49,065 bases of DNA from an uncultured Campylobacterales bacterium (GTDB taxonomy: Bacteria > Campylobacterota > Campylobacteria > Campylobacterales > JAADDG01): positions 1-49,065 of the forward strand of contig CAZPVZ010000197.1 of NCBI GenBank assembly GCA_964590185.1. Reading direction: 5' to 3'. Shown here one piece after another: positions 3,239 through 47,220 of the stretch. Every line of letters begins with the position of its first letter. Position 1 is the first letter of the stretch. The position numbers and the translations under genes are program-made. The notes under the pieces were generated by a model. That model saw only the letters and a program-made list of their open reading frames with translations. It did no database searches and was not told the origin of the DNA.

Positions 3239-4775
3239 GATTGCTAAAGAGGCTATCGAGATTATCAATAAAAATTACGAGCTTTTAACGCCGGAGAACT
3301 ATTTTAAGGCTTTCTGTTTCGTTGCGAAAAAGAGAGGTTTTATAGTAGAGGACTGTCAAAAGCTTGAGAAATATCTGAAAAAACTCGATCCGGTGATTCA
3401 AAACGAGGCTAAAAAATTCTCAATAAGAAACATTGACGATTTTTTCGCTTTTTTGATAGCCTATATAAACAGAGTCAATAAACTCGAATCTTCGGCGCAT
3501 ATAAAACAGCTTAGCCTTTTGATAAAAAGAATTCTTCAAGCCGTTACTCTTTTGCACGATAAAGAGGCGGCGGAATTGGCTCAGATATCTATGGACAGAA
3601 TAAGCTATACGGTGGATACGGAGTCTATAGAGCTTATAAAGGATAAATGGTTCGATTTCGTTACCTCTTACGACGACTCCTATTTAAACAAGCTCGATCC
3701 TTATTGCAAAGTTGATAAGGAAGATTTGAAAACCATGGTAAACGAGCTTGTAGAGTGTTTTGAAAACGGATGCGAAGAGAGGATAAAAGAGTCTCTCTCG
3801 AAACTCGCTCCCATACTGATAGCTTCTTTGACTCCTTCCATAGCTTCGGAAGTTGACGACGAGCTTGCCGTAATCTCTTACGAGCTGCAAAATTCTCCCG
3901 AATCTTTGACGGCGGAAGGCTTTTTGGAAGATTTGAAAAAGATGATCAAAAGAAGAAAACAGCTCGATAAGGATAAGGTGAGGGAGAAGGTTGCGGTTTT
4001 GAACTCTCTTTTGCAGGATATCTCTTTTAAAATTATAGAGCTTGTAGAAAAGAGCAATTTAAGCAACGAAAAGATCAAAAAGATAAAGAACGATATAAAA
4101 AATACCGACTTTCAAGAAAGCTCTTTGGAGGCGATTCAAAAGAAGCTTTTAAAAATAGCCCAATCTTTAGAGATAGAGACCGAGAGTCTTTCCAACAAGA
4201 TGGAAAATCATAAACAGATTATAAAACAGCTTTATACGAGAGTGAAAAAGCTTGAGAAAGCCTTGATGCTCGCAAAAAGAGAGATAAAGATAGACTTTTT
4301 AACCTCCACTCTTTCAAAAAGAGGGCTTGACGAAGAGATGCATAAGGCCGAGGAGAGCTACAAGAGATATAAAACCAACTATTCGGTGTGTTTTTTCGAT
4401 ATAGACTACTTTAAAATTATAAACGACACTTACGGTCATGACGCGGGAGACGTGATTTTAAAAACGATAGGGGAACTTTTCAGAAAAAACGCAAGAGAAG
4501 TCGATATAGTCGGAAGATACGGGGGAGAGGAGTTTGTGGTTATACTTCCCAACGTGGATTTGAAGGGAGCCATTAAATTTGCTAATAAAATGAGACTGTT
4601 GGTTAAATCCAACCGTTTTATTTATAAAAACGAGCGTATTTACGTCTCTATAAGCGGCGGAGTAAGCCAAAGAAAGGATCATAGAAGTTTGGAAGAGACT
4701 TTAAATGCCGCCGACGAACTTTTGTATAAAGCCAAGGCGGCCGGAAGAAATAAAATAATGCCGGAATTCGGATGA
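3225..4775 (+). CDS. Diguanylate cyclase (C-terminal GGDEF domain, long coiled-coil N-terminal region)
   Basis: C-terminal FFDIDYFKIINDTYGHDAGD...RYGGEEFVVILP. The GGEEF active site has an RxxD I-site (REVD) 5 residues upstream. No TM segment. The start overlaps the lptE end by 14 nt. Confidence 0.85.
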   Translation: MTVNEIAKEAIEIINKNYELLTPENYFKAFCFVAKKRGFIVEDCQKLEKYLKKLDPVIQNEAKKFSIRNIDDFFAFLIAYINRVNKLESSAHIKQLSLLIKRILQAVTLLHDKEAAELAQISMDRISYTVDTESIELIKDKWFDFVTSYDDSYLNKLDPYCKVDKEDLKTMVNELVECFENGCEERIKESLSKLAPILIASLTPSIASEVDDELAVISYELQNSPESLTAEGFLEDLKKMIKRRKQLDKDKVREKVAVLNSLLQDISFKIIELVEKSNLSNEKIKKIKNDIKNTDFQESSLEAIQKKLLKIAQSLEIETESLSNKMENHKQIIKQLYTRVKKLEKALMLAKREIKIDFLTSTLSKRGLDEEMHKAEESYKRYKTNYSVCFFDIDYFKIINDTYGHDAGDVILKTIGELFRKNAREVDIVGRYGGEEFVVILPNVDLKGAIKFANKMRLLVKSNRFIYKNERIYVSISGGVSQRKDHRSLEETLNAADELLYKAKAAGRNKIMPEFG

Positions 4776-5923
4776 AAGTAGAAGAGTTTTTAAATAAAAA
4801 GCCTCTCTTTTATAAAGAGATAGATTACGAAAGAATGCCGAGAGTTTGGCGTAAGATAAAAGACAATTTCAGATTGCCCGAGATAATTCATATCGTCGGA
4901 ACGAACGGAAAAGGCAGTACCGGAAGATTTTTGGCCTTTTATCTTTATAAAAGCGGTTTTAAGGTCGGACACTATACTTCTCCGCATGTTTTAAGATTTA
5001 ACGAGCGTATTTGGATAAACGGTAAAGAGATAGACGATCTTTCCTTGCAGAAGGCTCATGAAAAGCTCTTATCCGTTTTGGGAGAAAAAGACGCAAACGA
5101 ACTTTCCTACTTCGAATATGCCACTCTTTTGGCCGTTTTGCTTATGCAAGAGTGCGATTATATCGTTTTGGAAGCCGGTTTGGGGGGAGAGTATGACGCA
5201 ACGGCCGTTTTTGAAAGCGTTCTTACTCTTTTGACTTCGGTCGATTACGATCATAAGGAGTTTTTGGGAAATACGATAGAGGAGATAACCTCTTCGAAAG
5301 TAGGGGCGGTTAAAAAAAACCTTATCGTGGGAATGCAAAAATATGCCGAAGTTTACGGAAAGGCTTTCGAAATCTCTTTGGAAAAGAATTTTAACGTTTA
5401 TCCGTATAATCGTTTTTTAACTTACGATGAGTTAATATTATCAGGTCTTTTTATTAAAAAAGAAAAATTACCCTCTTTTTTTCTGTCTAATTTGACTTTA
5501 GCCCTATCCGCGGTTAAATTTTTAGGACTTAAGGTCGATTTAGATAAACTAAAGGGGGTAAAGATTTTCGGCAGATGTCAAAAGTTTAAAAAAAACGTTA
5601 CGATAGACGTCGGACACAATCCTTCGGCCGCGGAAGCTTTGAGAGAGCACTTTTTAGGGAAAAAAGTGGTTTTGGTTTATAACAGTTTCGCCGATAAGGA
5701 TTATTTTTCGGTTTTGAAAATTTTAAAACCCGTCGTTAAGAGGGTTGAAATAATCGATATCCGAAACGAAAGAGCGGCCGAAAAAGAGGATATGGAAAAA
5801 ACTTTAAAAAGCCTCTCGTTGGAATTTGGATATTTTGATGGGATAAAAGAGGAGGAAGAGTATCTGGTTTTCGGCTCTTTTTCCGTGGCGGAGGCTTTTT
5901 TGAAGGCTATGAATGAGAAATAA
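4772..5923 (+). CDS. folC: Folylpolyglutamate synthase / dihydrofolate synthase
   Basis: Mur-ligase P-loop VGTNGKGST with FolC-like length and context. ATGA overlap with the upstream gene. Confidence 0.85.
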   Translation: MKVEEFLNKKPLFYKEIDYERMPRVWRKIKDNFRLPEIIHIVGTNGKGSTGRFLAFYLYKSGFKVGHYTSPHVLRFNERIWINGKEIDDLSLQKAHEKLLSVLGEKDANELSYFEYATLLAVLLMQECDYIVLEAGLGGEYDATAVFESVLTLLTSVDYDHKEFLGNTIEEITSSKVGAVKKNLIVGMQKYAEVYGKAFEISLEKNFNVYPYNRFLTYDELILSGLFIKKEKLPSFFLSNLTLALSAVKFLGLKVDLDKLKGVKIFGRCQKFKKNVTIDVGHNPSAAEALREHFLGKKVVLVYNSFADKDYFSVLKILKPVVKRVEIIDIRNERAAEKEDMEKTLKSLSLEFGYFDGIKEEEEYLVFGSFSVAEAFLKAMNEK

Positions 5924-6890
5924 ACTCACAATCACCGTTTCCGATATAAACGGGACGAAGCATTATGAAGTTCATCAGGCGGTAAAGAAATTTATCGTCT
6001 ATTTTTTGGTTTTTATAGGTTTGGTCGTCGGAAGCAGCTTTTATCTTATAAATTTTTTGATGCATGAAGTGGAGACTTTGGAAAAGAAAAAAGAGATGAT
6101 AGCCGCCGAAGAGGCCAAACTGAAAGAAGAAAAGAGAGTTTTGGAGGAGCAGATAGCCAAAAAGACCGAGGAGTTTGAAAATATTCGGGACAAAGTGGAG
6201 GATATAGAGGAGCTTATAGGTCTTAAACCGGCCAAAAAGGTTGCCGGAGAGGATCTTGAGAAGAGACTCGAGCTTTTGAAAATCTCCTCCAACGAAAGAA
6301 AGGTTATTTTAAATTCCATCCCGCAAGGTTATCCGGTTAGGGGAGCTCATATAACTTCCGGTTTCGGATGGAGAATACATCCGATTTTTCATAAGAGGAA
6401 ATTTCATCACGGGCTCGATTTTGCGGGTAAGATAGGACTTCCGATCAGAGCTCCGGCGGACGGTATAGTAACTTCCGCCGGTTTTAATAGAGGAGGTTAC
6501 GGATACGTTATAAAAATAGCCCACAATTACGGGTTTGAAACCATTTACGCCCACCTTACTAAAAATTTAAAGGTGAAAGTTGGGGATTTCGTTAAAAAAG
6601 GTGATATAATTGGATATCTCGGAAACAGCGGAAGATCGACGGGACCTCATCTTCATTACGAAGTTAGGTTTTTGGGGAGGATCTTAAATCCTATCAATTT
6701 CGTAAGATGGAATATAATAAATTTCGATGAAATCTTTAAAAAGGAGGATAGAGTACCATGGCATTCTTTGGTAGAAGCAATAAAACACCAGCAAGACCTG
6801 TTCCTGCGATTGCAGCAAAATCTGCAAGCACTACAAAAAAACAAACCCAGTCGTCGGAAACGACGGTCATCGCGTCAGGAGCGAAAATAG
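5913..6890 (+). CDS. M23 (LytM-type) metallopeptidase, Csd1-like, with N-terminal TM and coiled coil
   Basis: HHGLD (HxxxD) and GPHLHYEV (HxH) zinc motifs. N-terminal TM (FIVYFLVFIGLVVG) and a K/E coiled coil. It lies directly upstream of, and overlaps, a bactofilin gene. Confidence 0.85.
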   Translation: MRNKLTITVSDINGTKHYEVHQAVKKFIVYFLVFIGLVVGSSFYLINFLMHEVETLEKKKEMIAAEEAKLKEEKRVLEEQIAKKTEEFENIRDKVEDIEELIGLKPAKKVAGEDLEKRLELLKISSNERKVILNSIPQGYPVRGAHITSGFGWRIHPIFHKRKFHHGLDFAGKIGLPIRAPADGIVTSAGFNRGGYGYVIKIAHNYGFETIYAHLTKNLKVKVGDFVKKGDIIGYLGNSGRSTGPHLHYEVRFLGRILNPINFVRWNIINFDEIFKKEDRVPWHSLVEAIKHQQDLFLRLQQNLQALQKNKPSRRKRRSSRQERK

Positions 6891-13449: not shown

Positions 13450-16044
13450 TTAAGCTTTTATGTCGGAGATGAATTTATATTCCGGAGAGTTGAATATGTA
13501 GTCTATGAGTTTTTCTCTCGTTAGGTCTTCTTGGAGTCTTTTCGTCCAATATTCAAGACCCATTTTTTCCGGCTCTCTGTTTAGGATCGTTCTGTAAGCC
13601 GCTTTTACGAAATCTTCGTCGGAAAGATTTCTCTCTTTAAACTCTTTGGAGAAAAAGAAGTCTTTTATGACTTGCTCGTAGGTGGTTTCGTTATTTTTTA
13701 GTTTTTCGACCCAATACTCTATCTCTCCGTAAGAGCCTTTTCTTCCGAGTATCAGATAGTAAAGACTCTCTATTCTCGAATAGAGCATGTCGTTCTCGTC
13801 GAAAGGTTTTAGGTCGTAGGATTTTGCGAGTTTTATAAACTCGTTGGTATATACGAGCTTATCGAAAACCAAGTCTCTGTTTAATATTCCTTCATTCAAT
13901 ATTTTGCTCCAATATGCCAACTCTCCCGGCAAAGGCTCTCTTTGATAAAGAGTAACGTAGATTTTTTTGACGTACTCTTCGTTTGAGAGGTTTTTGTTTT
14001 GCAATTCGTGAGTTAGTACGAAGAATCCTTTCGCTACGGCCGCCGCGCTATCTCCGTTTTTTAATCTTTTCGTCCAGTATTTCAATCCCTCTTCTTCCGG
14101 TTCTCTGTCTAAAACGGTGTTATAGAGGTACCTTACGTAGGTCATTGCCGGATCTTCGCCGGTTTTTATTTTGATTTTGGCGGGTTTTGAGTCTCCGTAA
14201 TCGTTAAACGCCACCACTTCGTATTCGTATTCGGTATCGGGAGATAGGTTTTCGTCGGTATATTCCGTCGTATTTTCGTCGAGAGTGGCTATGACTTCTC
14301 CGTCTCTTAAGATTTTAAATCCGGTCTCGTCCGGTAGATCGTTCCAGGTTAGGATTACGCTCTCGTATCCTTCGGATTTCGCTTTGAGTCCGGTTACTTC
14401 TCCCGGCACTCCGGAATCCGTTTTAACTTTTGCGGATACCGCCGGGGAATCGACTTCTCCGTTTGTGGCTATGACTTGATACTCATATTCTTTCGCGGCC
14501 GTCAGATTGTCGTCGGTATATTCGGTTACGTTTTCATCGACGGTCGCTATAAGTTCTCCGTCTCTTAAAATTTTGAATCCGGTTTCGTTATCGCTCGTGT
14601 CTTCCCAAATTAGAGTGACGCTGTGAGGAGTGATATTTGCGAAGGTCAGATTTGCCGGAGCGCTTAATTCTACGATTTTTTCTTTAGTGGTTACGCTTAT
14701 CGGATCGCTTTCGCTCTCTCCCCCTTCGTTTATCGCGACCACTATATAAGTATAAGTCGTGTTGGATGAGAGATTTTCGTCGGTATATTCCGTCGTATTT
14801 TCGTCGAGAGTGGCTATGACTTCTCCGTCCCTTAAGATTTTAAATCCGGTTTCGTCGTCGGAATTGTCGCTCCATTTAAGAGTTACGGAATCGGAGGTTA
14901 TTTCGGTTGCGTTTAAATCGGAGGGAGCTTTCGGAATGGATATTTCTTCGGGGACTTGGACGCTCAAAGAGACTCCTTCGCTTTTTCCGGCTTCGTTTAC
15001 CGCTTTTACGGTGTATAGATACTCTTCTCCGCCGCTTACGTTGTTATCCGTATATGTGGTGGTGTTTGCCGGAACGGTTGCTATCAGAAGATCGTTTCTA
15101 TATATCTCGAAACCGCTTTCGTCGTCGCTCGTATCCTCCCATTTTATGGTAACGGAGGATGCGTTTACTTCGGCTGCTTCCAAATTAATCGGTTCGGAAG
15201 GGATCGTTACTTCTTTCGGAGTTTGAACTTCTATGGAAACTCCTTCGCTCTCTCCCGCTTCGTTGAAAGCTTTTATTTCGTATGTGTATAGAGTATCTTG
15301 CGTTAGGTTCGTATCGGTGTATTCGGTTGCGTTTTCTTCGAGGGTGGCTATAAGTTCTCCGTCTCTTAAGATTTTAAATCCCTCTTCGTCGTCGCTTAAA
15401 TCCTCCCATGTCAAAGTTACGGAGTTTGGCGTGGAGTTTGATACTTGCAAGTTTCCGGGAGATTCGGGAATCGTTACTTCCGGTTCCTCTTTCCCGTCGC
15501 TTAGGATGATGTCGTCGAACCTTCCGCTGCCTCTTACTATTAATCCCTCTACGCTCAAAAGGTCGGTATTTGGCATCAGTTCGTGGAGTTTGTCTTCGAG
15601 ATTTACTTTGAAAGTGTGCCACCGACCGTCGTCCGCGTCCGTTCCGAGTCCGAAAGAGAGCTCCGAAAATCTTATAACTTTTCTATCTTCCGAACAGTTG
15701 CAAAAAGTTATGTATCTGTTTCCGTCGGTCGTTTTCGTCATGACGTATATTACGAAACTCGAATCGCTTTTTTGCTTCCATTCGAGGATGAAATGATCTT
15801 TATCGTTCCAAAGGGAACCGTCCTCTTTCGTAAGTAGAAAAGAGTTTTGTTCTCCGTCTCCTTTTAACTCGATGACGTTGCTTTGAAGCTCCTCGTCGTA
15901 CACTCTTTTTATGGAGGCTCCCGGAGGCGTGTCGTCGAGTACTTTCCATTTTGCGGTATCTCCGCTTTCGGCATCTTCATACACTATGCTGCCGGCATGC
16001 ATCAGACCCGCTAAGGCCATAGCCACTGCAAAGGTTTTCCACAT
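13450..16044 (-). CDS. Large secreted surface protein: N-terminal jelly-roll-like domain, 5 FN3 repeats, C-terminal DUF4214-like repeats
   Basis: Signal peptide MWKTFAVAMALAGLMHAG. Five ~88-aa repeats (VTLTWED.SDDE.GFKILRDGE.IAT..EN.TEYTD.NL....Y.Y.V.A.NE.GES). The C-terminal repeats follow Y..L..REP..EGL.YW...L. Confidence 0.85.
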   Translation of the reverse strand: MWKTFAVAMALAGLMHAGSIVYEDAESGDTAKWKVLDDTPPGASIKRVYDEELQSNVIELKGDGEQNSFLLTKEDGSLWNDKDHFILEWKQKSDSSFVIYVMTKTTDGNRYITFCNCSEDRKVIRFSELSFGLGTDADDGRWHTFKVNLEDKLHELMPNTDLLSVEGLIVRGSGRFDDIILSDGKEEPEVTIPESPGNLQVSNSTPNSVTLTWEDLSDDEEGFKILRDGELIATLEENATEYTDTNLTQDTLYTYEIKAFNEAGESEGVSIEVQTPKEVTIPSEPINLEAAEVNASSVTIKWEDTSDDESGFEIYRNDLLIATVPANTTTYTDNNVSGGEEYLYTVKAVNEAGKSEGVSLSVQVPEEISIPKAPSDLNATEITSDSVTLKWSDNSDDETGFKILRDGEVIATLDENTTEYTDENLSSNTTYTYIVVAINEGGESESDPISVTTKEKIVELSAPANLTFANITPHSVTLIWEDTSDNETGFKILRDGELIATVDENVTEYTDDNLTAAKEYEYQVIATNGEVDSPAVSAKVKTDSGVPGEVTGLKAKSEGYESVILTWNDLPDETGFKILRDGEVIATLDENTTEYTDENLSPDTEYEYEVVAFNDYGDSKPAKIKIKTGEDPAMTYVRYLYNTVLDREPEEEGLKYWTKRLKNGDSAAAVAKGFFVLTHELQNKNLSNEEYVKKIYVTLYQREPLPGELAYWSKILNEGILNRDLVFDKLVYTNEFIKLAKSYDLKPFDENDMLYSRIESLYYLILGRKGSYGEIEYWVEKLKNNETTYEQVIKDFFFSKEFKERNLSDEDFVKAAYRTILNREPEKMGLEYWTKRLQEDLTREKLIDYIFNSPEYKFISDIKA
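14249..14856 (-). repeat. Pair of 83-bp near-identical direct repeats (14249-14331 and 14774-14856) inside the FN3 array
   Basis: Read directly: the two copies differ at 2 positions (14305/14830 and 14326/14851). The offset is 525 bp, which is in frame. Confidence 0.9.
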
Positions 16045-25629: not shown

Positions 25630-28600
25630 ATGAAACGACTCTTTAGCTTTTTTATTCTGTTGTCTCTGCTTTTTGCGGCGGCTCTTTTTGGCAAGTCGCA
25701 AATTATTTACGATAAGTTGGCTTCTTTCGGAGGAGCCTATAACGGAGTGGCGACCGACGGGAACTACTCTTTCGTAGCTTCCAAAAACGGTCTTAAGATT
25801 TTGGACGTATCGGATAAAGCGTCCGTAAAATTGGTAAACTCTTTGGATACCGAAAGCGAACTTAAAAAGGTGGCGCTAAAGGACGATTACGTTTTTATAG
25901 CAAGCGATGAGAATACTTTAAAAATCGTAAAAAAAAGCGATCCTTTGAATCTTGACGATTCGGTAGTTATAAAAACGAGCGCTCCGATTACCGACTTTAC
26001 CGTATATCAAGGTTATCTTTACATAACCATATCGGAAAACGGACTTGAAATTTTTAAGATGCCTACCGTTGAGATGATATCCCTATCGAGCGTAACCGAT
26101 ACCAACGGAACCGCTTCCGCCGTGGCGGTTGAGGGGGATTACGCTTACGTTATCGATAAGTTTAAAGGAATGCAGATTATAAACGTCGCTAACAAATTAA
26201 ATCCTTCTCTTGCGGGTTTTTATCCTTACACTTCTCCGGTTAGCAATCTCGCCGTAAGCGGCGATTACGTCTATTTCGCCGACGGTTACAACGGAATAGA
26301 GGTCGTATATGTAAAGGATAAGAATAAACCTGTTCATTTTACGAAAATAGATACCCAAAGTTACGTTTACGACGTAAAGATAAGCGGGGATTATTTGTAT
26401 GCCGCTTGCGGAACCGGAGGAGTTAAGATTTATAACATTTCCGAGCCGGAATCCGCTTATAAAGTCGGAGAGTACGATACTAAAGGGAGCGCGAGAGGAC
26501 TCTTTCTAAAAGACGATTATCTATTCGTGGCCGATTATGACGGAGGACTCGATATTTTGGACATTAATAATCAAGGTTCCGTTTACAATCCGTATTTGGC
26601 CGGAGCCTACTCCACTCTTGCCGGCGTTTATAGCGTAATGAGAGAGGGAGAGTATCTTTATGTCTCCGATAAAAGCGTGGGAGTGGCTATTTTCGATCTT
26701 TCCGACGAAAACAACATCACTTTGGCGGGAACTTATAAAACGAAAGAGAAACCGCAGGACGTTTTTAGTGACGGAAATTACCTCTATATAGCGGAAGGAA
26801 AAGGCGGGCTTGAGATAGTTGACGCTACCGATAAGAGCGATCCCGTTCTTAAAGGAGCGATCGATATAAACGATGCGGACGCGTTGAGAGTTAAGGTAAA
26901 AGACGGCATGGCTTATATAGCGGGCGGAGACGGCGGGCTTGTCGTCGTGGACGTTTCCGTTCCGACCTATCCGACTTTGAAGGGAATTTACAATACGGAA
27001 GGGACCGTAAGAGACGTTTTCGTTAAAGACAATTACGCTTATATAGCGGACGGAATGGCCGGAGTTAAAATAATAGATATTTCCGACGATACCTATCCTC
27101 TCGTGGGAAGCGTCGATACCGACGGATACGCTATGGGCATAAAAGTTGTGGGAAGATACGCTTATGTGGCCGACGGAGGAAGCGGTCTTGAAATTATAGA
27201 CGTAAGCGACCCCGCCAATCCCGTTCTCATAGGAAACAACGATACGGACGCAACCTCTTACAAAAAACTTTCCGTTAGCGGAAACAACGTTTTCGTAGCC
27301 GATAGCGACGACGGAGTGGACGTATTGGACGTTTCCAATCCGATGCATCCTCAATATCTCGGAACTTATCTTTCAAAAAGCATGCTTTATGACGTAGATT
27401 CGAAAGATTCGATCGTTTACGTGGCAAACGGATCCAGAGGAGTTCAAATCGTTAAAGTTACGGTTATGCCGACTCCTCCGAGCAATTTGAAACTTGTCGT
27501 AAAAGATAGTAGAACCATAGAACTTACTTGGAGCGATAACTCCAATAACGAAACCGGATTTAAGATTTTCAGAAACGGAGTTTTGATAGCGACCGTCGGA
27601 GCGAACGTTACTAAATATACCGATACGGGCTTGATTCCCGGAGCCACTTATACTTATGAAGTCAGGGCTACGAACAACATAGGAGATTCTCTTCCGGCTA
27701 CGGCTACCGCTACTACGGAGGGAGAACCGCCTTCCGCACCTACCAATCTTATGGCCGTTTCCGTAGGAAGCAAAAGTATTAAACTTACTTGGAGCGATAA
27801 CTCCAATAACGAAACCGGATTTAAGATTTTCAGAGATAACGAACTTGTCGCGACGGTTCCGGCAAACACCACTTCTTATGTTGATACCGGTTTGGTAAAA
27901 GGAAAAACTTACTATTACGAGGTAAGAGCCACTAACGAAAAAGGAGATTCCGATCCCGTTTCGACCGAGGCTATGCCGGTGGATCCGAAAATAGAGCTTT
28001 TCGTTCAAAGACTTTATTTGAAAATTTTAAATAGAGAAGTGGATCCTAACGGTAAAAAATATTGGACCGAGAAGCTTCAAAAGGGAGCAACCGCAACTTC
28101 GGTCGCAAAAAGCTTTTTCAACAGTGCCGAATTCGTAGATCTTCAATTGAGCGATAGCGAGTATATAACGAGAGCTTACGAGACTCTTTTAAACAGAGAG
28201 CCGGATCCGGAAGGTCTTGTTTACTGGCTCCATCAGAAAGATGTGGCCGGATTGAATAGAAATCAGATCTTTTACGGTCTTGCCTTGTCTAAAGAGTTTA
28301 GCGATTTGTGTCAACAAACTTACGGAATATTGGCTTACGACGCGGCTGATTTGAGAGAGGCTTTCGTAGAGAGATTTTACAATCTCGTTTTGGGAAGAGA
28401 CGCGGATTTGGGCGGAGTTAAATATTGGACGAACGAACTTAAATCTAAGAGAAAGAGCGCCGAAGATATAGCAAACGGATTCTTCTTTTCCGAAGAGTTT
28501 AAAAACAGAGCGGTAAGCAACGAAAAATTCGTGGAGATAGCTTATAGAACCCTTTTAAACAGAGAAGCCGATTTGGAAGGAAAAAATTTCTGGGTGGGCA

Positions 28601-28707
28601 AATTGAATAACGGATATTCCAGAAGCGCCATGATTTTGGATTTCGTATATACTCCGGAGTTTGAATCTTTGGCGAAAAAATACGATATTAAGGCTCATAA
28701 CGACTAA
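25630..28707 (+). CDS. Large secreted surface protein: ~12 LVIVD-type beta-propeller repeats, 2 FN3 repeats, C-terminal DUF4214-like repeats
   Basis: Signal peptide. Recurring G.YAY.ADG..GL.I.DVS.P..P...G blades (LVIVD-repeat type). Two FN3 units (LTWSDNSNNETGFKIFR...) and then four Y..L.NRE.D.EG..YW units. Confidence 0.85.
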   Translation: MKRLFSFFILLSLLFAAALFGKSQIIYDKLASFGGAYNGVATDGNYSFVASKNGLKILDVSDKASVKLVNSLDTESELKKVALKDDYVFIASDENTLKIVKKSDPLNLDDSVVIKTSAPITDFTVYQGYLYITISENGLEIFKMPTVEMISLSSVTDTNGTASAVAVEGDYAYVIDKFKGMQIINVANKLNPSLAGFYPYTSPVSNLAVSGDYVYFADGYNGIEVVYVKDKNKPVHFTKIDTQSYVYDVKISGDYLYAACGTGGVKIYNISEPESAYKVGEYDTKGSARGLFLKDDYLFVADYDGGLDILDINNQGSVYNPYLAGAYSTLAGVYSVMREGEYLYVSDKSVGVAIFDLSDENNITLAGTYKTKEKPQDVFSDGNYLYIAEGKGGLEIVDATDKSDPVLKGAIDINDADALRVKVKDGMAYIAGGDGGLVVVDVSVPTYPTLKGIYNTEGTVRDVFVKDNYAYIADGMAGVKIIDISDDTYPLVGSVDTDGYAMGIKVVGRYAYVADGGSGLEIIDVSDPANPVLIGNNDTDATSYKKLSVSGNNVFVADSDDGVDVLDVSNPMHPQYLGTYLSKSMLYDVDSKDSIVYVANGSRGVQIVKVTVMPTPPSNLKLVVKDSRTIELTWSDNSNNETGFKIFRNGVLIATVGANVTKYTDTGLIPGATYTYEVRATNNIGDSLPATATATTEGEPPSAPTNLMAVSVGSKSIKLTWSDNSNNETGFKIFRDNELVATVPANTTSYVDTGLVKGKTYYYEVRATNEKGDSDPVSTEAMPVDPKIELFVQRLYLKILNREVDPNGKKYWTEKLQKGATATSVAKSFFNSAEFVDLQLSDSEYITRAYETLLNREPDPEGLVYWLHQKDVAGLNRNQIFYGLALSKEFSDLCQQTYGILAYDAADLREAFVERFYNLVLGRDADLGGVKYWTNELKSKRKSAEDIANGFFFSEEFKNRAVSNEKFVEIAYRTLLNREADLEGKNFWVGKLNNGYSRSAMILDFVYTPEFESLAKKYDIKAHND
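27521..27834 (+). repeat. 53-bp perfect direct repeat (27521-27573 and 27782-27834) in the two FN3 units
   Basis: Read directly: AACTTACTTGGAGCGATAACTCCAATAACGAAACCGGATTTAAGATTTTCAGA occurs twice, 261 bp apart and in frame. Confidence 0.9.
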
Positions 28708-33920: not shown

Positions 33921-33950
33921 GCAAAAGGGATTGAACCCTTTTGCTTTTTA
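33921..33950. terminator. Bidirectional rho-independent terminator
   Basis: Perfect 9-bp stem GCAAAAGGG / CCCTTTTGC (33921-33929 and 33936-33944), a 6-nt loop, then TTTTT. It lies between convergent genes. Confidence 0.75.
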
Positions 33951-35642
33951 GTCTATATCGTTTTTTAGAAGATAGGCGAGTTTTTTTAGATTTTCGTCCA
34001 TAACGGGAGTGTTTTTTATGATATATAGAAGCTGGGCGTCGCTTAGTCTGCTTTTTTGTTGAAATTTGGGTTTTAGTTTGCTCCAAAACTTTCTTACTCT
34101 CTCCAGATGGGCTTTCGCTTTCGGAGTTTCCGCTTCCAAACTTCCGAAATTCTTATCTCCTTTTAAAATATTGCTGAATATTAAAATGGAACCGTTTAGT
34201 TTTTTTCTATTTTCTTTGGGATCTATGTTCCCTTCTATTAAGAGTCTCTCTTTCGCCATTTTTTGAAGAAGGTATCTCTCTCTTTGAACGAGCGCCACTT
34301 TATGAGCCGTGTATGTTCCTATCGAGGAGTCCTCTTGCATGATTCTTTGGACTCTTAAAGTGAAAGCGTTCGTTTTTCTAAGAAGCTTTTCGTTGTTGTT
34401 TAAAACGTACAAAAGAGCGTCTCTGTCTATCTTGCCCGATAGAAATTTTTTTACGTTTTCGTAGAAAGGTTGCCACTCTTTATCTATCTCCGATAGCTGT
34501 TTTCTCGCTATTTTATCCGTAATTTTGGGTATTCCGGCCTTTTCGTCTCCGTTTATGAACGCTTTTAGCGTTTTATCGAACTGCAAGGAGCTTTCTTTCA
34601 AATTTTCAAGATGTTTTTCCGGTTCGACTCCCATTATCGTTAATATTATCTCTTTAACCATTTTTTGGGTTCGGGCTTGTTGGAGATAGGCTTCGTTTAT
34701 CAGTTTGTCGTTTTGACTGATCGCTTTTTCGAAAGAGTTTACTATCTGGGATATTTTGGAGATTTTGATTTGTCTTTTTATCGACTGTTCGTACATTTTG
34801 ACGGCTTTGTCCATCTCTTTGAGAGTCAAAGCCAAAGCGTCCGTTATGGCTTTTAATCTCTTTTTAGAGTATTTTTCTTCGTTTAGCGTAGGTTTTATCT
34901 GATCCCAATAACCTTTTACGATAAGAAGCTGCTGTTTTATGTTGTTTAATTTGCATCCTTTGCTTCCTATCTCCTTATCTCCGTAAAGGAGGGCTTTTAA
35001 ACTTCTATCGAAAAGGTTTATCGTTTTTTTCAACTCTTTTTTATTTTTTTCCGGTTCTATTCCCAAATCTATCAAAAGGAGCTCTTTAGACATCTTTTGA
35101 GTGAGCATCCTTTGTCGTCCGGCTATGTTTATGTCGTTTGCTATGTCTATTTTTAGTTTGGATAGGTTTCCGCTTTGTTCCACGAACATCGTAACGGCTT
35201 TATGCATATTTTTTAGAAGCGGAACGTTTTTGCGGGAAATATTTAATAAAACCTCTCTTGAGGTGTTTCCTTTCAAAATCTCTTGCAGATCCTTTTTGAA
35301 ATCTTCCCACAGCTTTTGAACTTTTCTCAGTTGCGTCTGTATGCTTTTCGAATTCGTTTTTGCGAGTCTTAACTCTTTATCCCCGTGCATCAGACCGTTT
35401 AATGTTTTTTCGAAAAGTTTCATGGAACTTTCAAGGTCTTTTTTGTTTTTTTCTACATCTATTCCCTCGGCTATTAAAAGAGCGTCTTTAGACATCTTTT
35501 GAGTGAGCATTCTCTGTTTGCCGGCTAAGTTGATGATGATTCCCATCTCTTTGTCGGTTATGGCAAACAGAGCGCTTGAGGTTAAAAACATTAACGTCAA
35601 AAAGGATAAAATGACTCTTTTAAACGCGTTGAACTTTTGCAA
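33948..35642 (-). CDS. Stand-alone periplasmic protein with four PilJ-N / NarX P-box-like sensor repeats
   Basis: Signal peptide. Four ~130-aa units, each opening with a P-box-like motif (INLAGKQRMLTQKMSKDALLI; INIAGRQRMLTQKMSKELLLI; AYLQQARTQKMVKEIIL; ALVQRERYLLQKMAKERLLI) and ending with a W-containing helix (KLWEDFK, GYWDQIK, KEWQPFY, KFWSKLK). No TM or output domain after the signal peptide. Confidence 0.7.
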   Translation of the reverse strand: MQKFNAFKRVILSFLTLMFLTSSALFAITDKEMGIIINLAGKQRMLTQKMSKDALLIAEGIDVEKNKKDLESSMKLFEKTLNGLMHGDKELRLAKTNSKSIQTQLRKVQKLWEDFKKDLQEILKGNTSREVLLNISRKNVPLLKNMHKAVTMFVEQSGNLSKLKIDIANDINIAGRQRMLTQKMSKELLLIDLGIEPEKNKKELKKTINLFDRSLKALLYGDKEIGSKGCKLNNIKQQLLIVKGYWDQIKPTLNEEKYSKKRLKAITDALALTLKEMDKAVKMYEQSIKRQIKISKISQIVNSFEKAISQNDKLINEAYLQQARTQKMVKEIILTIMGVEPEKHLENLKESSLQFDKTLKAFINGDEKAGIPKITDKIARKQLSEIDKEWQPFYENVKKFLSGKIDRDALLYVLNNNEKLLRKTNAFTLRVQRIMQEDSSIGTYTAHKVALVQRERYLLQKMAKERLLIEGNIDPKENRKKLNGSILIFSNILKGDKNFGSLEAETPKAKAHLERVRKFWSKLKPKFQQKSRLSDAQLLYIIKNTPVMDENLKKLAYLLKNDID

Positions 35643-35685: not shown

Positions 35686-36789
35686 TTATTTTATTTTGGG
35701 TACTTTAATGACCATGCCGACCGTAACCATGTTAGGATTCGTTAAAATATCCTTATTCGCTTCCGCTATCAATTTATATTTATAAGGATCGTTGTATATC
35801 TTTTTGGCTATGTTCCAAAGATTATCTCCCTCTTTTATTTTAACGAGGGTATAATCTTTTTCAACTTTTAAAATATCTATTTTCGAAGTCGAAACCTCTT
35901 TTAAAAGACCGACTACGTACTCTTTGTTTTTGCCGGTTGCCTGTTTGCCGACTTCGTTTATTATCTCTTTTATCAGATCTTTTTTGGATTTCGGTTTTAT
36001 CTTTACCGCGTTTTCCGTAGGAGTTTCTTCGTCTATCAGCGACGCAAGTTTATCGTCTTTGATCTTTATTCCGGCGCTCGCTATCAGCTTTTTGAGATTT
36101 TCTCTAAATAGGATTTTAGATGTTTTTTCGTCCTCTTTTACGGAAACGGGTTTGATTTCCTCCTCTTTAGATGAGAGTACGGGTTCTTTTTCCAATATCT
36201 TTTCGGCTTCTTTGCCAGATACCGAGGCCGTTTTGTCTCCTCCGAGTCTAACCACGTTGTCTCCCGCCGAATCCTCCGCCTCTTTCGCTAACATGTCCGC
36301 ATATTTCTCTTCTTCGCTTTTCTCTTTTTTCGGAGTGCCGAAAGAGGTTTGCGCGCCTTTTATCACGACGGCGTTTTCCGGTCTCATATCTTCGTCGGCT
36401 TCTTGTTCGAGCATGCTTTGATAGCTGTTTTGAGAAACTGCCGAGCGCGTTATTTTCTTTAAAGCCTCCTTTTTATCTTCCGAAGAAGCTTTTTGGGCCT
36501 CTTTTTTTATTTCTATGCTTTTGACTTTTCCCGTCAGAAGGTTTTCAAGAGCGTTTTTTTTGATGGAGACTTCCTCTCTTTTTTCGTTTTCTTTTTTAGC
36601 CGCCGTTTTTGCGTTTTCGTTCTCTTTTGCTTTAGGGGGGGAGCCGTTTTCTTTTTTGACGCTCTCTTTAACCGTATTAACCGTGTTGTCGGCTGCCGGC
36701 GTCGAAGGTGTCGAGTTGCCCATGTTCAAAAGCCCCAGCTGCCATATGATTATGGATCCTACGATTATAAAAAGTATGAATTTCCACAT
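35686..36789 (-). CDS. Membrane-anchored LysM-domain protein with a long K/E-rich linker
   Basis: N-terminal TM (MWKFILFIIVGSIIIWQLGLL), low-complexity K/E/A region, and a C-terminal LysM (YTLVKIKEGDNLWNIAKKIYNDPYKYKLIAEANKDILTNPNMVTVGMVIKVP). Confidence 0.8.
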   Translation of the reverse strand: MWKFILFIIVGSIIIWQLGLLNMGNSTPSTPAADNTVNTVKESVKKENGSPPKAKENENAKTAAKKENEKREEVSIKKNALENLLTGKVKSIEIKKEAQKASSEDKKEALKKITRSAVSQNSYQSMLEQEADEDMRPENAVVIKGAQTSFGTPKKEKSEEEKYADMLAKEAEDSAGDNVVRLGGDKTASVSGKEAEKILEKEPVLSSKEEEIKPVSVKEDEKTSKILFRENLKKLIASAGIKIKDDKLASLIDEETPTENAVKIKPKSKKDLIKEIINEVGKQATGKNKEYVVGLLKEVSTSKIDILKVEKDYTLVKIKEGDNLWNIAKKIYNDPYKYKLIAEANKDILTNPNMVTVGMVIKVPKIK

Positions 36790-36811: not shown

Positions 36812-37462
36812 TTATTCTTCCGGAATTACCGTCGTAAGTCCGAGCATCTGCCAGTTTTGCATACCGCCTCTGTAATAAAATATTTTGTTTGCGGGATATC
36901 CCATTTTGATTAGGGCTTTTATTGCGTGAGGGGATTGCGCGCACCACGGGCCGTTACAGAAAAATAGAAGTTTTTGAGCGTGAGAGAAATCCCATTTTCC
37001 GTTTTTGTACTCCGCTCCCAAAAGCTCCAATATTTTTTGAGTGTAAGGATCTTCTATGCCTCTGGTAAAAAGAGTGAAAGGGATATTGATGGCTCCCGGA
37101 ATCGTTCCGTTTCTGTACCATTGAGGAAGTCTTGCGTCTATCAGCAATCCGGTGTTGTTTTTAACTTCCGTTTTTAGAAAATTCAAAAGTTCCAACTCTC
37201 CGTAAAGTTTCACTCCTTTTGCCACCTGAATCGGTTGAATGCAAAAAGGAGGGCACGGTCTGGAAGTTTTGGCATAGCTGTTTTTTAACTTGTGTTTCGT
37301 ATCTTGTATTCTTTGAATTCTTACCGTTTTTCCTCCGTGTTCCACGTCCACGTAAGGGAGTCCCTCGGCGATATTTACCTCGAGTCCGAAAGCGGATAAG
37401 GAAAATACCGTTAAAGAGAGCAGTGTAGCTTTAATTTTCGACGATGAAAATCTAAATGGCAT
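36812..37462 (-). CDS. Periplasmic rhodanese-domain sulfurtransferase-like protein
   Basis: Signal peptide. Rhodanese pattern (LLIDAR.P..Y..G.IPGAINIP ... LLFFCNGPWCAQSPHA...L...GY..I.YYRGGMQ.W) plus an additional RPCPPFC motif. Confidence 0.75.
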   Translation of the reverse strand: MPFRFSSSKIKATLLSLTVFSLSAFGLEVNIAEGLPYVDVEHGGKTVRIQRIQDTKHKLKNSYAKTSRPCPPFCIQPIQVAKGVKLYGELELLNFLKTEVKNNTGLLIDARLPQWYRNGTIPGAINIPFTLFTRGIEDPYTQKILELLGAEYKNGKWDFSHAQKLLFFCNGPWCAQSPHAIKALIKMGYPANKIFYYRGGMQNWQMLGLTTVIPEE

Positions 37463-37890: not shown

Positions 37891-37917
37891 TAAAGTATTA
37901 AATCGTAGTGACGATAT
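37891..37917 (+). promoter_or_regulatory. Candidate sigma28 (FliA) promoter: TAAA-N15-GACGATAT
   Basis: TAAA at 37891-37894, exactly 15 nt, then GACGATAT at 37910-37917, against the textbook TAAA-N15-GCCGATAA. It lies 66 nt upstream of ATG 37984. Confidence 0.5.
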
Positions 37918-37983: not shown

Positions 37984-38262
37984 ATGAAAATAACTAAACT
38001 GCTATTATTCGGAGTATCGGCTTTGGCCGTCGCTTCTTTGATGAGCGGTTGCGCTCAAAAACCGGCTCAGGCCGCTTGCGATACGCCGGATTTTTGCAAA
38101 CCTCAAGTGAAAGTTAAGGTTAAAATAAAAAAGGTGCCGGTAAGCGAATGCGCTAAAAGAGTTAAAACGGTCGTTTATAAAGGTATTTGCAAACATTGCA
38201 ACGGTAATTTTCCCGTTAGCGTAAGAGAAAACAGTTGTTGTGAAGAAGGAGCATGCAGATGA
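37984..38262 (+). CDS. Cys-rich mini-lipoprotein (cassette copy 1), unknown family
   Basis: GAAGGAG RBS 6 nt before ATG 37984 (track start 37969 is too close). Lipobox LMSGC, with 8 further Cys in the mature ~70 aa. Paralogous to 39156-39428. Confidence 0.75.
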   Translation: MKITKLLLFGVSALAVASLMSGCAQKPAQAACDTPDFCKPQVKVKVKIKKVPVSECAKRVKTVVYKGICKHCNGNFPVSVRENSCCEEGACR

Positions 38263-38924
38263 AAACTAAAAAGCTGATAAGTTTGGTGGGAGCCTCGATT
38301 TTATTGAGCGCCTCTTTGATGGCGGGAAACTATCCTTATGCTCAAAAAGTGCAAAGTTACGGATACGACTTTAATTCCAACGCCGCGGGATACATTAATC
38401 AGATAGTCGGTACGATTGCCGATCAGTTGGCTCAAAATAAAGATTTTAAAAATATCAAAGACACGCCTATAGCGGTTACTTCCATAGTCAATCTCGAAAA
38501 CTATAAAGAGACCGATAAAGTGGGAAACGTTATAGAAGAGAATCTTATTCACGAGATGCAGGTTAGGGGATTTAAGGTCGTCGATTATAAAACGATGCCT
38601 ACCATTAAAATAGGCAAACATGGAGATTACGCTTTTTCGAGGCTCCTTTACGAGCTTAGAAAAGAGCAGCATATAAATTACGTTTTGGCGGGAACTTATA
38701 CGAAATACAGCGACGGTATAGCCGTAAATTGCAGATTGATAGACTTAAGAAACAACGTCGTCGTTTCCACGGCTCAAACTTTTATTCCGGCTCAGCTTTT
38801 GAGAGTCGTCGATTATAAGAGCGGTTTCGATATCTATCCCGGGGATAAGGTTGTAACCAAAGTTAAAGTGGTTAAAGTCGTTCCGAAAGTTCAGGAGAAT
38901 ACCATTTTATTGGATTCCGAGTAA
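38259..38924 (+). CDS. FlgO-like periplasmic protein (cassette copy 1)
   Basis: ATGA overlap with the upstream stop, and AAGGAG 8 nt upstream. Sec signal (…SASLMA/GNYP). Central pattern PIAVTSIVNLEN....D..GN.I.ENLIHEMQVRGFKVVDYK......I...GD..FSR........INYVLAGTYTKY.DGIAVNCRLIDL..N.VVS.A, as I know it from the FlgO/TolB-N/LpoB-like family. Confidence 0.65.
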   Translation: MKTKKLISLVGASILLSASLMAGNYPYAQKVQSYGYDFNSNAAGYINQIVGTIADQLAQNKDFKNIKDTPIAVTSIVNLENYKETDKVGNVIEENLIHEMQVRGFKVVDYKTMPTIKIGKHGDYAFSRLLYELRKEQHINYVLAGTYTKYSDGIAVNCRLIDLRNNVVVSTAQTFIPAQLLRVVDYKSGFDIYPGDKVVTKVKVVKVVPKVQENTILLDSE

Positions 38925-38931
38925 TTTTAGC

Positions 38932-38966
38932 ATCGATAGGTTTTTCCTATCGATCTTTTTCTTTTT
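38932..38966 (+). terminator. Rho-independent terminator after cassette copy 1
   Basis: Perfect 9-bp stem ATCGATAGG / CCTATCGAT (38932-38940 and 38946-38954), a TTTTT loop, then CTTTTTCTTTTTG. Confidence 0.8.
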
Positions 38967-39155
38967 GTTTCTCTTCGTTTTCTCTCGTTTTCTTCCTCTT
39001 CCCGTGTCCTTTTTGGAAACATGTAAAAACTATAAGTCAATATATTTTACCAAAGTAAAAAATTAATATTCGATTAAGAAAACTTGTCATAAACTGTAAT
39101 TAACAAAGGGCATTTCATATACCTTTTGGGTATTTCTTAAGAAAAGGAGGTTGAG

Positions 39156-39428
39156 TTGGTAAAGGTGAAAAGAGCCTTGACTTTCTTAAGCTTTTTTTTA
39201 TTCGCCGCATTCTCGCTAAACGGGTGCAGTGCCGTACAAAACGGCAAATGCGCGTCTTTTTGCGATAAAAATTATTACGCGGCTAAAAGAAGCGTCGTAA
39301 AGAAGGTCAAGGTGAGCGAGTGCGCAAGGAGGGTTAAGACCGTTGTATATAACGATATTTGCACAAAATGCTCTTATCCTGTAACGGTAAGAGAGAATAA
39401 CTGTTGTTCCAAAGGAGGTTGCAGATGA
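39156..39428 (+). CDS. Cys-rich mini-lipoprotein (cassette copy 2), unknown family
   Basis: TTG start 5 nt after AAGGAGG. Lipobox SLNGC, and the same 8-Cys pattern as copy 1 (SECA[KR]RVKTVVY..IC..C..PV[ST]VREN.CC....CR). Confidence 0.7.
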   Translation: MVKVKRALTFLSFFLFAAFSLNGCSAVQNGKCASFCDKNYYAAKRSVVKKVKVSECARRVKTVVYNDICTKCSYPVTVRENNCCSKGGCR

Positions 39429-39778
39429 AAGCGTTCGTAAAAAGCTTAGCGGCGATTTTTCTTTTAACCGGAGTTTTAAACGCCGGAGGAGTTACTTTGC
39501 TCGGAGTCGGCGCGGGAGTTAATTTGTTGGGATTGCAAGTGGGAGCCGGGGCTTCAATAGGTATCGGGACTACGGCTTCTTCCGAGAGAGGAAGTTCTTC
39601 GGCCGCTTTGAAAAGCGATGAAAGATGCGGCGCTTGCGTCTCTTCCACTTGCTGTTTTAAAGTAAAAAACGATTGTCCTCCTTTTATGTTCGATAACGCG
39701 GGAATAGAAGAGAGAGTCGTAAAAGTGGAGGAATATTACATGATCGAGGGGTGTCCCGTTTGCGTAAGTTGTAATTAG
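39425..39778 (+). CDS. Secreted Gly-rich / Cys-rich small protein, unknown family (only in cassette copy 2)
   Basis: ATGA overlap with the upstream stop, and an AAAGGAGG RBS. Signal peptide MKAFVKSLAAIFLLTGVLNA, a G/V/L-rich segment (GGVTLLGVGAGVNLLGLQVGAGASIGIG), and a C-terminal 8-Cys region (CGACVSSTCC...C...CPVCVSC). Confidence 0.6.
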   Translation: MKAFVKSLAAIFLLTGVLNAGGVTLLGVGAGVNLLGLQVGAGASIGIGTTASSERGSSSAALKSDERCGACVSSTCCFKVKNDCPPFMFDNAGIEERVVKVEEYYMIEGCPVCVSCN

Positions 39779-39787
39779 GAGGCCGTT

Positions 39788-40432
39788 ATGAGATCAATAA
39801 AATGGCTTCTTGTCGTTGCGGTTTTATCCGTTTTGGGTTTGAGCGCGGGAGAAAACTATCCCTCCTCCCGCAAAGTCCAATTTTTCGAATTCGGTACTAA
39901 CGCCAACGCTGCGGGATATGTAAATCAGATAGTCAGCGCCATAGCGGATCAGTTGGCGCAGAATAAAGATTTCGCCAATATCAAGGATACTCCGATTGCC
40001 GTTACTTCGATAGTCAATATCGAAAATTTGCAAAAGACGGATAAATTCGGAAACGTAATAGCGGAGAATTTGATTCACGAGATGCAGGTTAGGGGTTTTA
40101 GAGTCGTCGATTATAAAACGATGCCCACCATTAAAATAGGCAAAAAGGGAGATTTCATATTCTCTCGCATAGTTAGCGAGTTGAAGAAAACTCAGAAAAT
40201 AAATTATGTTCTATCCGGAACTTATACCAAATATAGAACCGGTATAGCCGTAAATTGCAGGATTATAGACATTACTACCAACGTGGTGAAATCTACGGCT
40301 CAGATTTTCGTTCCGATAGGCTTGATTAACGCCGTAAATCATCCTTACGGAGTCTATAAAAAGAGCAGGACTAAAGTTATAAGATTCGTTCCTAAAGTCA
40401 AAGAGCACACGATAATTTTGGAAGAGATGTAG
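39788..40432 (+). CDS. FlgO-like periplasmic protein (cassette copy 2)
   Basis: Aligns over its full length with 38259-38924 (NAAGYVNQIVSAIADQLAQNKDFANIKDTPIAVTSIVNIENL; NLIHEMQVRGFRVVDYKTMPTIKIGK; GIAVNCRIID). Sec signal …GLSA/GENYP. Confidence 0.65.
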   Translation: MRSIKWLLVVAVLSVLGLSAGENYPSSRKVQFFEFGTNANAAGYVNQIVSAIADQLAQNKDFANIKDTPIAVTSIVNIENLQKTDKFGNVIAENLIHEMQVRGFRVVDYKTMPTIKIGKKGDFIFSRIVSELKKTQKINYVLSGTYTKYRTGIAVNCRIIDITTNVVKSTAQIFVPIGLINAVNHPYGVYKKSRTKVIRFVPKVKEHTIILEEM

Positions 40433-46443: not shown

Positions 46444-47154
46444 CTAAAACGGAGAGAGAGCTTCTATGAATCTTGCTCCCCAAGGTTTTCGAGAAGTTTG
46501 ATCTATATCTCCTTCGGTTGCGTAGAGTATCTTCGCATCGGCTATGTATTTCGAATCTATCGTATTTCTTTCGTCTATGTCGTAAGGTCTTATCACTCCG
46601 CTTATTTTGATGATCTGTTTGTTTCCGTTTACCAAAAGCTCTCTGCTGCCCATTATAAAGTAGTTTCCGTTTCTTAAAACTTTCACTATTCTCGCCGTGA
46701 TGGTCGTTGTGAACTTTTCGTCTCTGGTGTTTACTCCGGAAGAGGAGAAGACGTTGCTTGAGCTGCTTTGAAATCCGATATTGGTTATTCCGTTTAAGGC
46801 GTTGGCTATCGCGGTTCCCGGGGAGCCGGAATTTGCACTTAAAACTCCTCCTCCCAACTGATTATTGTTGTTTGATTGGAGTTTCTTTTTGCCGCTTGAA
46901 GATTGAAAAATCTTTTCGTCTATCACTACCGTTACGATATCGTTTACTCTCATCGCTTTTCTGTCCGAAAAGAGCGGATTCTCTCCTTTCCCAAAAAGGC
47001 TTCCTTCGTTATTGACGATGTTTTGGTTTATTTTGGGCGGAATCTGTTCTACGTATTTGGGAGGAGTCATATTGAGAGTCGGGTCCATAGGATGTCTCGA
47101 ACATGCGGTAAAAAATAGAGCGATCGATAAAGCGGAAAGTGAAATTTTTCTCAT
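46444..47154 (-). CDS. flgH: Flagellar L-ring lipoprotein
   Basis: Lipobox FFTACS; SLF...ENPLFSDRKA.RVNDIVTV.I.E; ITARIV.VL.NGN..I.G.RE...N; I.ISG.IRP.DI...NTI.S..IADA.I.Y. I start it at ATG 47154 (GGAGAAAAA RBS) rather than 47193. Confidence 0.9.
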   Translation of the reverse strand: MRKISLSALSIALFFTACSRHPMDPTLNMTPPKYVEQIPPKINQNIVNNEGSLFGKGENPLFSDRKAMRVNDIVTVVIDEKIFQSSSGKKKLQSNNNNQLGGGVLSANSGSPGTAIANALNGITNIGFQSSSSNVFSSSGVNTRDEKFTTTITARIVKVLRNGNYFIMGSRELLVNGNKQIIKISGVIRPYDIDERNTIDSKYIADAKILYATEGDIDQTSRKPWGARFIEALSPF

Positions 47155-47220
47155 TTTTTCTCCGTTTGCGTAAACTTTTCGATAAAATATCAAGCAAATT
47201 AAGTTCCAAAAGGAGTATTT

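Follow-up and report, generated by a model that had tools for sequence, protein, structure and literature searches.

What does a bacterial cell do with two neighbouring gene sets that each combine a small lipoprotein with a larger exported protein? This question is raised by a contig from an uncultured Campylobacterales bacterium (GenBank CAZPVZ010000197.1; the whole stretch analysed, 49,065 nt, is called the window below). The first set consists of genes A1 and B1, and the second of A2, X and B2, where A denotes the small lipoproteins, B the larger proteins and X an extra small secreted protein. An original prediction, made from the letters alone, had described them as a duplicated accessory module of the envelope or the flagellar motor, and our analysis largely supported that interpretation. 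We judge it probable, by a modest balance, that the locus encodes two paralogous modules for flagellar rings close to the outer membrane, in which a small hairpin partner tethers or bridges a FlgO protein that lacks an anchor of its own.

Profile comparisons placed B1 and B2 in the FlgO family. The match to Pfam PF17680 (FlgO) had an expectation value (E) of 8.9e-41 for B1 (139.2 bits) and 1.6e-41 for B2 (141.6 bits; cut-off 22.6), and no other Pfam or NCBIfam match was meaningful. B1 also aligned with the FlgO chains of Vibrio cholerae in PDB entries 9yds, 9yfg, 9yh6 and 9yh7, titled 'FlgO domain-containing protein' (E 2e-29; 53 of 115 residues identical, 46%). B1 and B2 were 65% identical to each other over 196 aa (E 4e-94). 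The two proteins represent a FlgO branch without a lipid anchor of its own: no lipobox was found in B1, B2, their counterparts in all fetched loci or the 27 closest database relatives, which carry ordinary signal peptidase I-type signal peptides.

An AlphaFold2 model of B1 had a mean predicted local distance difference test (pLDDT) score of 65 and an alpha/beta core scoring 70-86. Foldseek matched this core to LpoB, the PelC dodecamer, TolB-N and CsgG (probability 1.0), and further matches were GNA1162, HpaA and FlgT. Thus, the FlgO-like identity that had been proposed and the LpoB/TolB-N-like fold were both borne out. The alternative offered at the same time, that B is an LpoB-like regulator of a peptidoglycan synthase, was supported at the level of the fold and by nothing beyond it: B1 and B2 have neither an LpoB profile match nor a lipobox, and Pfam LpoB (PF13036), TolB_N, CsgG and PelC gave no match at E <= 1. 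The model, built as a monomer, was of low confidence in the first ~20 mature residues, in a hairpin at residues 114-128 and in the last 35 residues. The hairpin region is the best-conserved sequence of the B family despite its low model confidence (segment VVDYKTMPTIKIGKHGDYAFSR). Alternating Lys/Val stretches were also noted in the C-terminal tail of B1 (TKVKVVKVVPKV, 38840-38915) and in the linker of A1 (VKVKVKIKKV, 38105-38135), with similar ones in B2 and A2, and the B family shares a C-terminal motif, VPKVxExT[IV]xL. These segments are candidates for strand pairing or for facing the membrane.

The small proteins A1 and A2 are, by their sequences, members of a rare family that has so far gone without annotation. 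Their C-terminal 38 aa were 63% identical (E 2e-15). Searches of Pfam, NCBIfam, PADLOC and PDB returned no relative beyond noise, and the FlgP/LPP20 profile (PF02169) did not match, in agreement with the view that the partner is not FlgP-like and belongs to no known family. Alignments showed a conserved core made of a strand, V-x-[TV]-V-x-Y, a short loop, and [FY]PVTVR placed 8-11 residues before the C-terminus; in A1 this core reads VKTVVY...FPVSVR. The AlphaFold2 model of A1 (pLDDT 70) contained a single hairpin with strands at 60-65 and 76-81, and Foldseek found no structural neighbour for it. The peptide motifs quoted in the original prediction were all found in the sequence. Its 8-Cys signature was present in both proteins and is typical of this clade; it does not define the family, in which the number of Cys per protein ranges from 0 to 10. 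The lipobox is absent in 9 of 42 clusters, and the members of the Sulfurimonas type have neither Cys nor lipobox.

The family is small, amounting to about 40 clusters among billions of proteins. A word-indexed search found six relatives, an exhaustive profile search gave 23 matches at E <= 1e-3 among 1.84 billion representatives, and a second profile that included divergent members gave 30. Four loci were found among one genome per GTDB species. A scan of 241 million JGI metagenome records, made with a narrower A alignment, likewise gave four loci, and these were all from close relatives. All named carriers are metagenome-assembled genomes (MAGs), assigned to Campylobacterales, 'Epsilonproteobacteria', Sulfurimonas sp. 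and, in one case, Gammaproteobacteria. Carriers of the pair include GCA_054029535.1, CAYVDJ01, JALVCR01, JAADDG01, JACAEZ01, GCA_018652745.1 and the Sulfurimonas MAG, whose pair is P0046/P0063 (L016). Every member is annotated as 'hypothetical' and has no Pfam domain.

The pairing of the two families was conserved across 10 lineages. An A gene lies directly 5' of a gene for an anchor-less FlgO homologue in the window and in loci L001-L006, L008, L010, L012, L016, L017 and L019; the two genes overlap or abut in most of them, with a gap of 26 nt in L008. The relation also held from either side among distant matches. Behind five distant A genes (P0011, P0015, P0017, P0022 and P0024) the next gene codes for a protein with a FlgO domain, and in most cases the two genes share 4 nt; three distant FlgO-like genes (P0046, P0052 and P0056) have an 88-89-aa A-family member directly upstream. 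The proposed co-occurrence was therefore observed, in that every locus examined with the small protein has a FlgO homologue. Because the pairing is kept across loci, A and B appear to form one inherited, translationally coupled unit. The only exception was P0055 (within L018 8001-9235), a 254-aa FlgO-domain protein without an upstream small partner. It has a Tyr/Pro/Gln-rich low-complexity N-terminal extension, and the gene of a 121-aa secreted Ala/Gly-rich protein follows. A natural A-B fusion was considered here and rejected, as the extension is not A-like; it may be an alternative anchoring solution. The longest small partner, 168 aa, belongs to the carrier represented by L012 and L013. In L016, a Sulfurimonas MAG, a Cys-free and lipobox-free A gene and its FlgO homologue are followed by the gene of a 218-aa lipoprotein of unknown family (LFTGC; 4385-5041), which could supply the anchor lacking there.

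The region upstream of A1 contains a motif, TAAAGTATTAAATCGTAGTGACGATAT, of the type TAAAG-N16-ACGATAT. Its geometry is the same as that of Escherichia coli FliA promoters, with CGAT at position 22, for example in fliC TAAAGGTTGTTTTACGACAGACGATAAC; the reference was the E. coli FliA promoter table (PMC4183435, table 2), as no Campylobacter sigma-28 consensus was given in the papers searched. The -35-like and -10-like halves are conserved islands in an otherwise divergent AT-rich spacer (window and L001-L003). A relaxed motif, TAA[AG]-N16-18-CGAT, occurred within 150 nt 5' of the pair in six of 10 independent lineages, with a per-locus chance of 0.01-0.03 in shuffles. Its density was 4.0 per kb upstream of the pair and 0.18 per kb elsewhere in the same sequences. 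A1-B1 is thus predicted to be under a sigma-28 promoter, and the motif match is strong. The suggestion that the module might be FliA-driven gained a conserved, recurring motif on its side. No fliA gene was seen within the 49-kb window. A hairpin equivalent to the terminator behind B1 was present in L001 and L003. The host is flagellated, because the L-ring protein FlgH is encoded in the same window (46444-47193, minus strand). As the first set lies behind a sigma-28-type promoter, the two sets are probably a variant of a known motor accessory. One other exact match to TAAA-N17-CGATAT exists in the 49 kb. It lies at 5921-5947, where a Mur-ligase-like gene (4772-5923) meets the gene of an M23 peptidase (5913-6890), and could be a sigma-28 promoter of the latter, provided that the peptidase in fact starts further 3'.

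On this basis, we infer an arrangement in which B1 and B2 would be exported as soluble subunits and would assemble, beneath the outer membrane, into large polymeric rings that encircle the L-ring, by analogy with V. cholerae FlgO and the suspected role of Arcobacter FlgO/FlgO'. Each B protein would be made in 1:1 translational coupling with its A partner. The C-terminal beta-hairpin of A (V-K-T-V-V-Y ... [FY]PVTVR) would bind the FlgO subunit, and the N-terminal lipid of A would, in most lineages, tether the ring to the outer membrane. In this way A may partly replace what the lipid of FlgO and the lipoprotein FlgP do in Vibrio. The two rings would be concentric, each with its own small partner. 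Unit 1 (A1-B1) would belong to the late flagellar operons, having a sigma-28 promoter and a terminator of its own; unit 2 (A2-X-B2) would be governed by a different conserved control region and would add an extra small secreted protein. Since the units differ in control region and in X, the two rings are probably made at different times or places.

The features of the locus are listed below. All five open reading frames (ORFs) were found where they had been placed, as checked against an ORF map and the sequence.

Table. Coordinates in the window of the genes and predicted regulatory elements of the two gene sets
Feature	Position	Strand	Description
A1	37984..38262	+	92-aa small lipoprotein, lipobox LMSGC, 8 Cys beyond the lipid Cys
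B1	38259..38924	+	221-aa Sec-exported FlgO-domain protein, no lipobox, ATGA-coupled to A1
A2	39156..39428	+	90-aa small lipoprotein and A1 paralogue; starts with TTG, lipobox LNGC, 8 Cys beyond the lipid Cys
X	39425..39778	+	117-aa secreted orphan, signal peptide, ATGA-coupled to A2
B2	39788..40432	+	214-aa Sec-exported FlgO-domain protein, no lipobox, B1 paralogue
Sigma-28 (FliA)-type promoter motif TAAAGTATTAAATCGTAGTGACGATAT	37891..37917	+	66 nt 5' of A1 start
Intrinsic-terminator-like hairpin, 9-bp stem and T-run	38932..38964 (or 38932-38954)	+	3' of B1, predicted end of transcription unit 1
Conserved non-coding block 5' of A2	39029..39110	+	No sigma-28 site; presumed own promoter/operator of unit 2
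Probable conversion tract in B1	38550..38620	+	92% DNA identity to 40076-40146
Counterpart of the tract in B2	40076..40146	+	Pairs with 38550-38620

A1 has the sequence AGGAG seven nt before its start, and the TTG start of A2 is preceded by AGGAGG and aligned with the ATG of an orthologue. In both couplings the TGA stop of the A gene overlaps the following ATG. B1 and A2 are separated by 230 nt, and B1 and B2 lie 0.9 kb apart. The full five-gene layout, between a rhodanese gene and aroK-der, also occurs in L001, L002 and L003, and partially in L023; L004, from a more distant Campylobacterales MAG, has a single A-B pair.

A and B were duplicated together. Since both pairs stand in the same order in the window and in four further related contigs (L001, L002, L003 and L023), the duplication is old. 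A near-identical stretch of ~70 bp shared by B1 and B2 had been attributed to recent duplication or gene conversion; the stretch is real and recent conversion fits it, and a recent duplication of the genes does not, as five contigs share the pairs. Within the tract, 20 of 22 same-amino-acid codons were identical, as against 65 of 110 over the remainder of the gene (Fisher p = 0.003, an indicative value only because the tract was picked post hoc). There the paralogues of the window are nearer to each other than to their orthologues, and the same tract in three related genomes showed no excess of identical codons. It covers the conserved HEMQVRGF.VVDYKTMPTIKIGK hairpin region. The tract is probably a short, recent, lineage-specific patch of gene conversion.

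Unit 2 is preceded by a non-coding block of ~80 nt (39029-39110) that is near-invariant in five related contigs, more conserved than the flanking coding DNA. It holds an AAGTnAA element twice, ~21 nt apart, and a dedicated regulator may use it as operator or promoter. A sigma-28 or sigma-54 site 5' of A2 was rejected, because the CGAT is unconserved among orthologues and no conserved GG-N10-GC was found. No structured RNA leader was detected 5' of A2 (consensus energy -2.9 kcal/mol), and the sole Rfam match in the window was one tRNA. The sequence CCTTTTG at 39122-39128 can pair with the Shine-Dalgarno sequence of A2, AAAAGG(AGG), at 39142-39148. This pairing is energetically weak and partly kept in orthologues, with one compensatory pair; it could form a hairpin that masks the ribosome-binding site. 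X contains a signal peptide, a Gly-rich hydrophobic stretch, GVTLLGVGAGVNLLGLQVGAGASIGIG, and a Cys-rich C-terminus, EYY..CPVCxSC, with 8 Cys in all. Homology of X to the A family was rejected (hhalign probability 1%), and X had no meaningful match in Pfam, NCBIfam, PADLOC or PDB profile searches.

Several observations weigh against a place in the motor. No flagellar gene adjoins the pair in any locus; its neighbours are housekeeping genes or genes of cyclic di-GMP and two-component signalling. Sigma-28 regulons of Campylobacterota also include genes that are dispensable for motility, such as those of the Fed proteins of Campylobacter jejuni. The motif at 16-18 nt spacing is absent in four of the 10 lineages, one of which, L012, has a 15-nt spacing. 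The TolB-N/LpoB/PelC fold also serves non-flagellar envelope proteins, as the Foldseek matches show. Tethering cannot be the universal role of the A family, because about a fifth of the small partners have no lipobox. Contact between A and B is itself an inference and counts among the reservations.

The main rival explanation, which we regard as unlikely, is that the module might be a general envelope scaffold outside the motor, with a FlgO-like periplasmic ring or adaptor (for example around an export pore, or as a tether for peptidoglycan synthase or the outer membrane) anchored by A, and sigma-28 control would reflect mere co-expression with flagella. The best structural matches of B1, from LpoB to CsgG, suit such a role, as does the fact that the pair never lies inside a flagellar gene cluster. 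In the carrier represented by L012 and L013, moreover, a divergent cluster encoding LpoB-family, TPR and two unknown proteins (L012 1078-4522 / L013 2-3191) lies 1.5 kb from the pair. However, the likeness of B1 to Vibrio FlgO at the sequence level (46%) is far closer than the 10-25% identity to LpoB and PelC, the corresponding Pfam profiles remained unmatched, and the sigma-28 motif recurs in unrelated lineages.

A second explanation would place the function in the cysteines. A1, A2 and X would be periplasmic metal- or sulfur-binding or redox mini-proteins for a sulfidic habitat, and the FlgO-like protein their carrier or receptor. The CxxC and CC motifs of A1 and A2 and the 8 Cys of X are consistent with this idea. 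A2 also gave weak zinc-ribbon-like matches to DUF2614 (E 0.14) and NCBIfam PRK02935.1 (E 0.098), and genes for thioredoxins and for cation efflux are found some 5-8 kb away, the latter being a single gene. These matches are far under the family cut-offs, however, and the invariant residues of the A family are V and R of PVTVR, the Arg included, and not Cys. Members with 0-2 Cys (L016, L017 and P0063-P0074) keep both the hairpin core and the FlgO partner. A metal or redox role is disfavoured because Cys-free members retain core and partner, and we consider it very improbable.

Least probable, by a little, is that unit 2 works as a small system of export or assembly, with X as an amyloid- or glycine-zipper-like cargo or membrane-inserted part, B2 as a CsgG/PelC-like ring and A2 as an accessory: X does have a signal peptide and the stretch GVTLLGVGAGVNLLGLQVGAGASIGIG and is kept between A2 and B2 in five contigs (window, L001-L003 and L023), and CsgG and PelC are among the structural matches of the B fold, but the CsgG match is weak (template modelling score 0.25), X has no glycine-zipper or curli family match, B2 is 65% identical to B1, whose unit has no X, and the reading is disfavoured because most pairs have no X, an X-like gene being absent from those in L004-L006, L008, L010, L012 and L017.

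Elsewhere in the window, two very large predicted surface proteins (13450-16044, minus strand; 25630-28707, plus strand) both have four DUF4214 repeats at their ends; five fibronectin-III domains are present in one, and the other combines eight LVIVD repeats with fibronectin-III domains. On the minus strand, a protein with three PilJ N-terminal sensor modules and a membrane-anchored, Lys/Glu-rich protein ending in LysM are encoded side by side (33948-35642 and 35686-36789). In L001-L003, too, the FlgO cluster is accompanied by the LysM gene and the rhodanese gene (36812-37462), in conserved synteny.

We return to the reading of the locus as two flagellar ring modules. Outer-membrane disks and rings are a main axis along which motors have diversified; examples are the H-ring of Vibrio, the basal disk of Campylobacter and the concentric rings of Arcobacter. 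What the Arcobacter-type disk is made of is still a matter of guesswork. The present data widen the range of FlgO to other Campylobacterales, where surveys had it absent, and add a strictly co-inherited small partner that had previously gone unannotated; all carriers found are uncultured. If the partner is an anchor or bridge, it would be a concrete candidate for unexplained ring densities and would illustrate how a molecular machine evolves by exchanging its subunits as modules. A broader proposal, to which we give somewhat less than an even chance, is that the small hairpin family is the dedicated adaptor of the lipid-less FlgO branch, that it supports FlgP-independent rings outside Vibrio and Arcobacter, and that duplicated pairs build distinct concentric rings, one of them with X. 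If this is true, flagellar outer-membrane disks were re-invented through a swap of the anchoring subunit.

Among known systems, LpoB, PelC, the TolB N-domain and CsgG share the core fold of B; of these, PelC and CsgG likewise assemble into rings beneath the outer membrane. LpoB, PelC and CsgG differ from B in the low identity given above, in the missing Pfam match and in being lipoproteins without a flagellar link. The FlgP-FlgQ basal disk of Campylobacter and Helicobacter resembles the proposed structure as a lipoprotein-based disk close to the outer membrane, in the same phylum and encoded by a two-gene unit; the families are different, A and B having no LPP20/FlgP Pfam match.

In the in-situ structure of the V. 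cholerae motor, from which the PDB entries named above derive, 58 FlgO and 58 FlgP subunits make up two concentric rings bound to the outer membrane, in the outer part of the H-ring. FlgO (at Cys16) and FlgP each carry a lipid, and FlgO touches FlgP with its second beta-sheet (bioRxiv 10.64898/2025.12.02.691832). The present locus is like the FlgO-FlgP system of V. cholerae and V. alginolyticus in its protein family, PF17680, in its 46% core identity and in its two-gene unit with a lipoprotein gene, found in a flagellated Gram-negative host with an L-ring. The FlgP-contacting hairpin region, ..RGFKVVDFKT..GDFAFSR, is best conserved here too. Unlike it, B1 and B2 lack an anchor, whereas Vibrio FlgO anchors itself by its lipid. 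FlgP is an LPP20-family alpha/beta lipoprotein of ~140 aa, whereas A is unrelated and has ~70 mature residues with one conserved hairpin. The lipoprotein gene comes first here, so that the gene order is reversed, and there is no FlgT, MotX or MotY context. No adjacent gene for an LPP20-family FlgP lies beside B1 or B2, and the neighbouring small proteins gave no LPP20/FlgP match. The original prediction spoke of a lipoprotein with a soluble partner; such a pair departs from the Vibrio model because Vibrio FlgO is itself a lipoprotein.

Among the epsilonproteobacteria, a FlgO homologue was reported in Arcobacter only, whose outer-membrane disk comprises 5-6 concentric rings and no FlgP (Chaban et al., PMC5758724). 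FlgO and FlgO' form an operon there, and FlgO was stated to be absent from other Campylobacterota (Mo et al., PMC9321776). Arcobacter is reported to have lost FliA, and neither of the two papers mentions a small A-like partner. The carriers found here are different, namely uncultured Campylobacterales other than Arcobacter, together with a Sulfurimonas MAG. They have a promoter of sigma-28 type, and no Arcobacter sequence was among the 27 closest FlgO-like matches. The locus is like Arcobacter FlgO/FlgO' in having two neighbouring FlgO paralogues in Campylobacterota, 65% identical and 0.9 kb apart. By description, the proposed rings also resemble the Arcobacter disk, which is proposed to be independent of FlgP and tightly apposed to the outer membrane.

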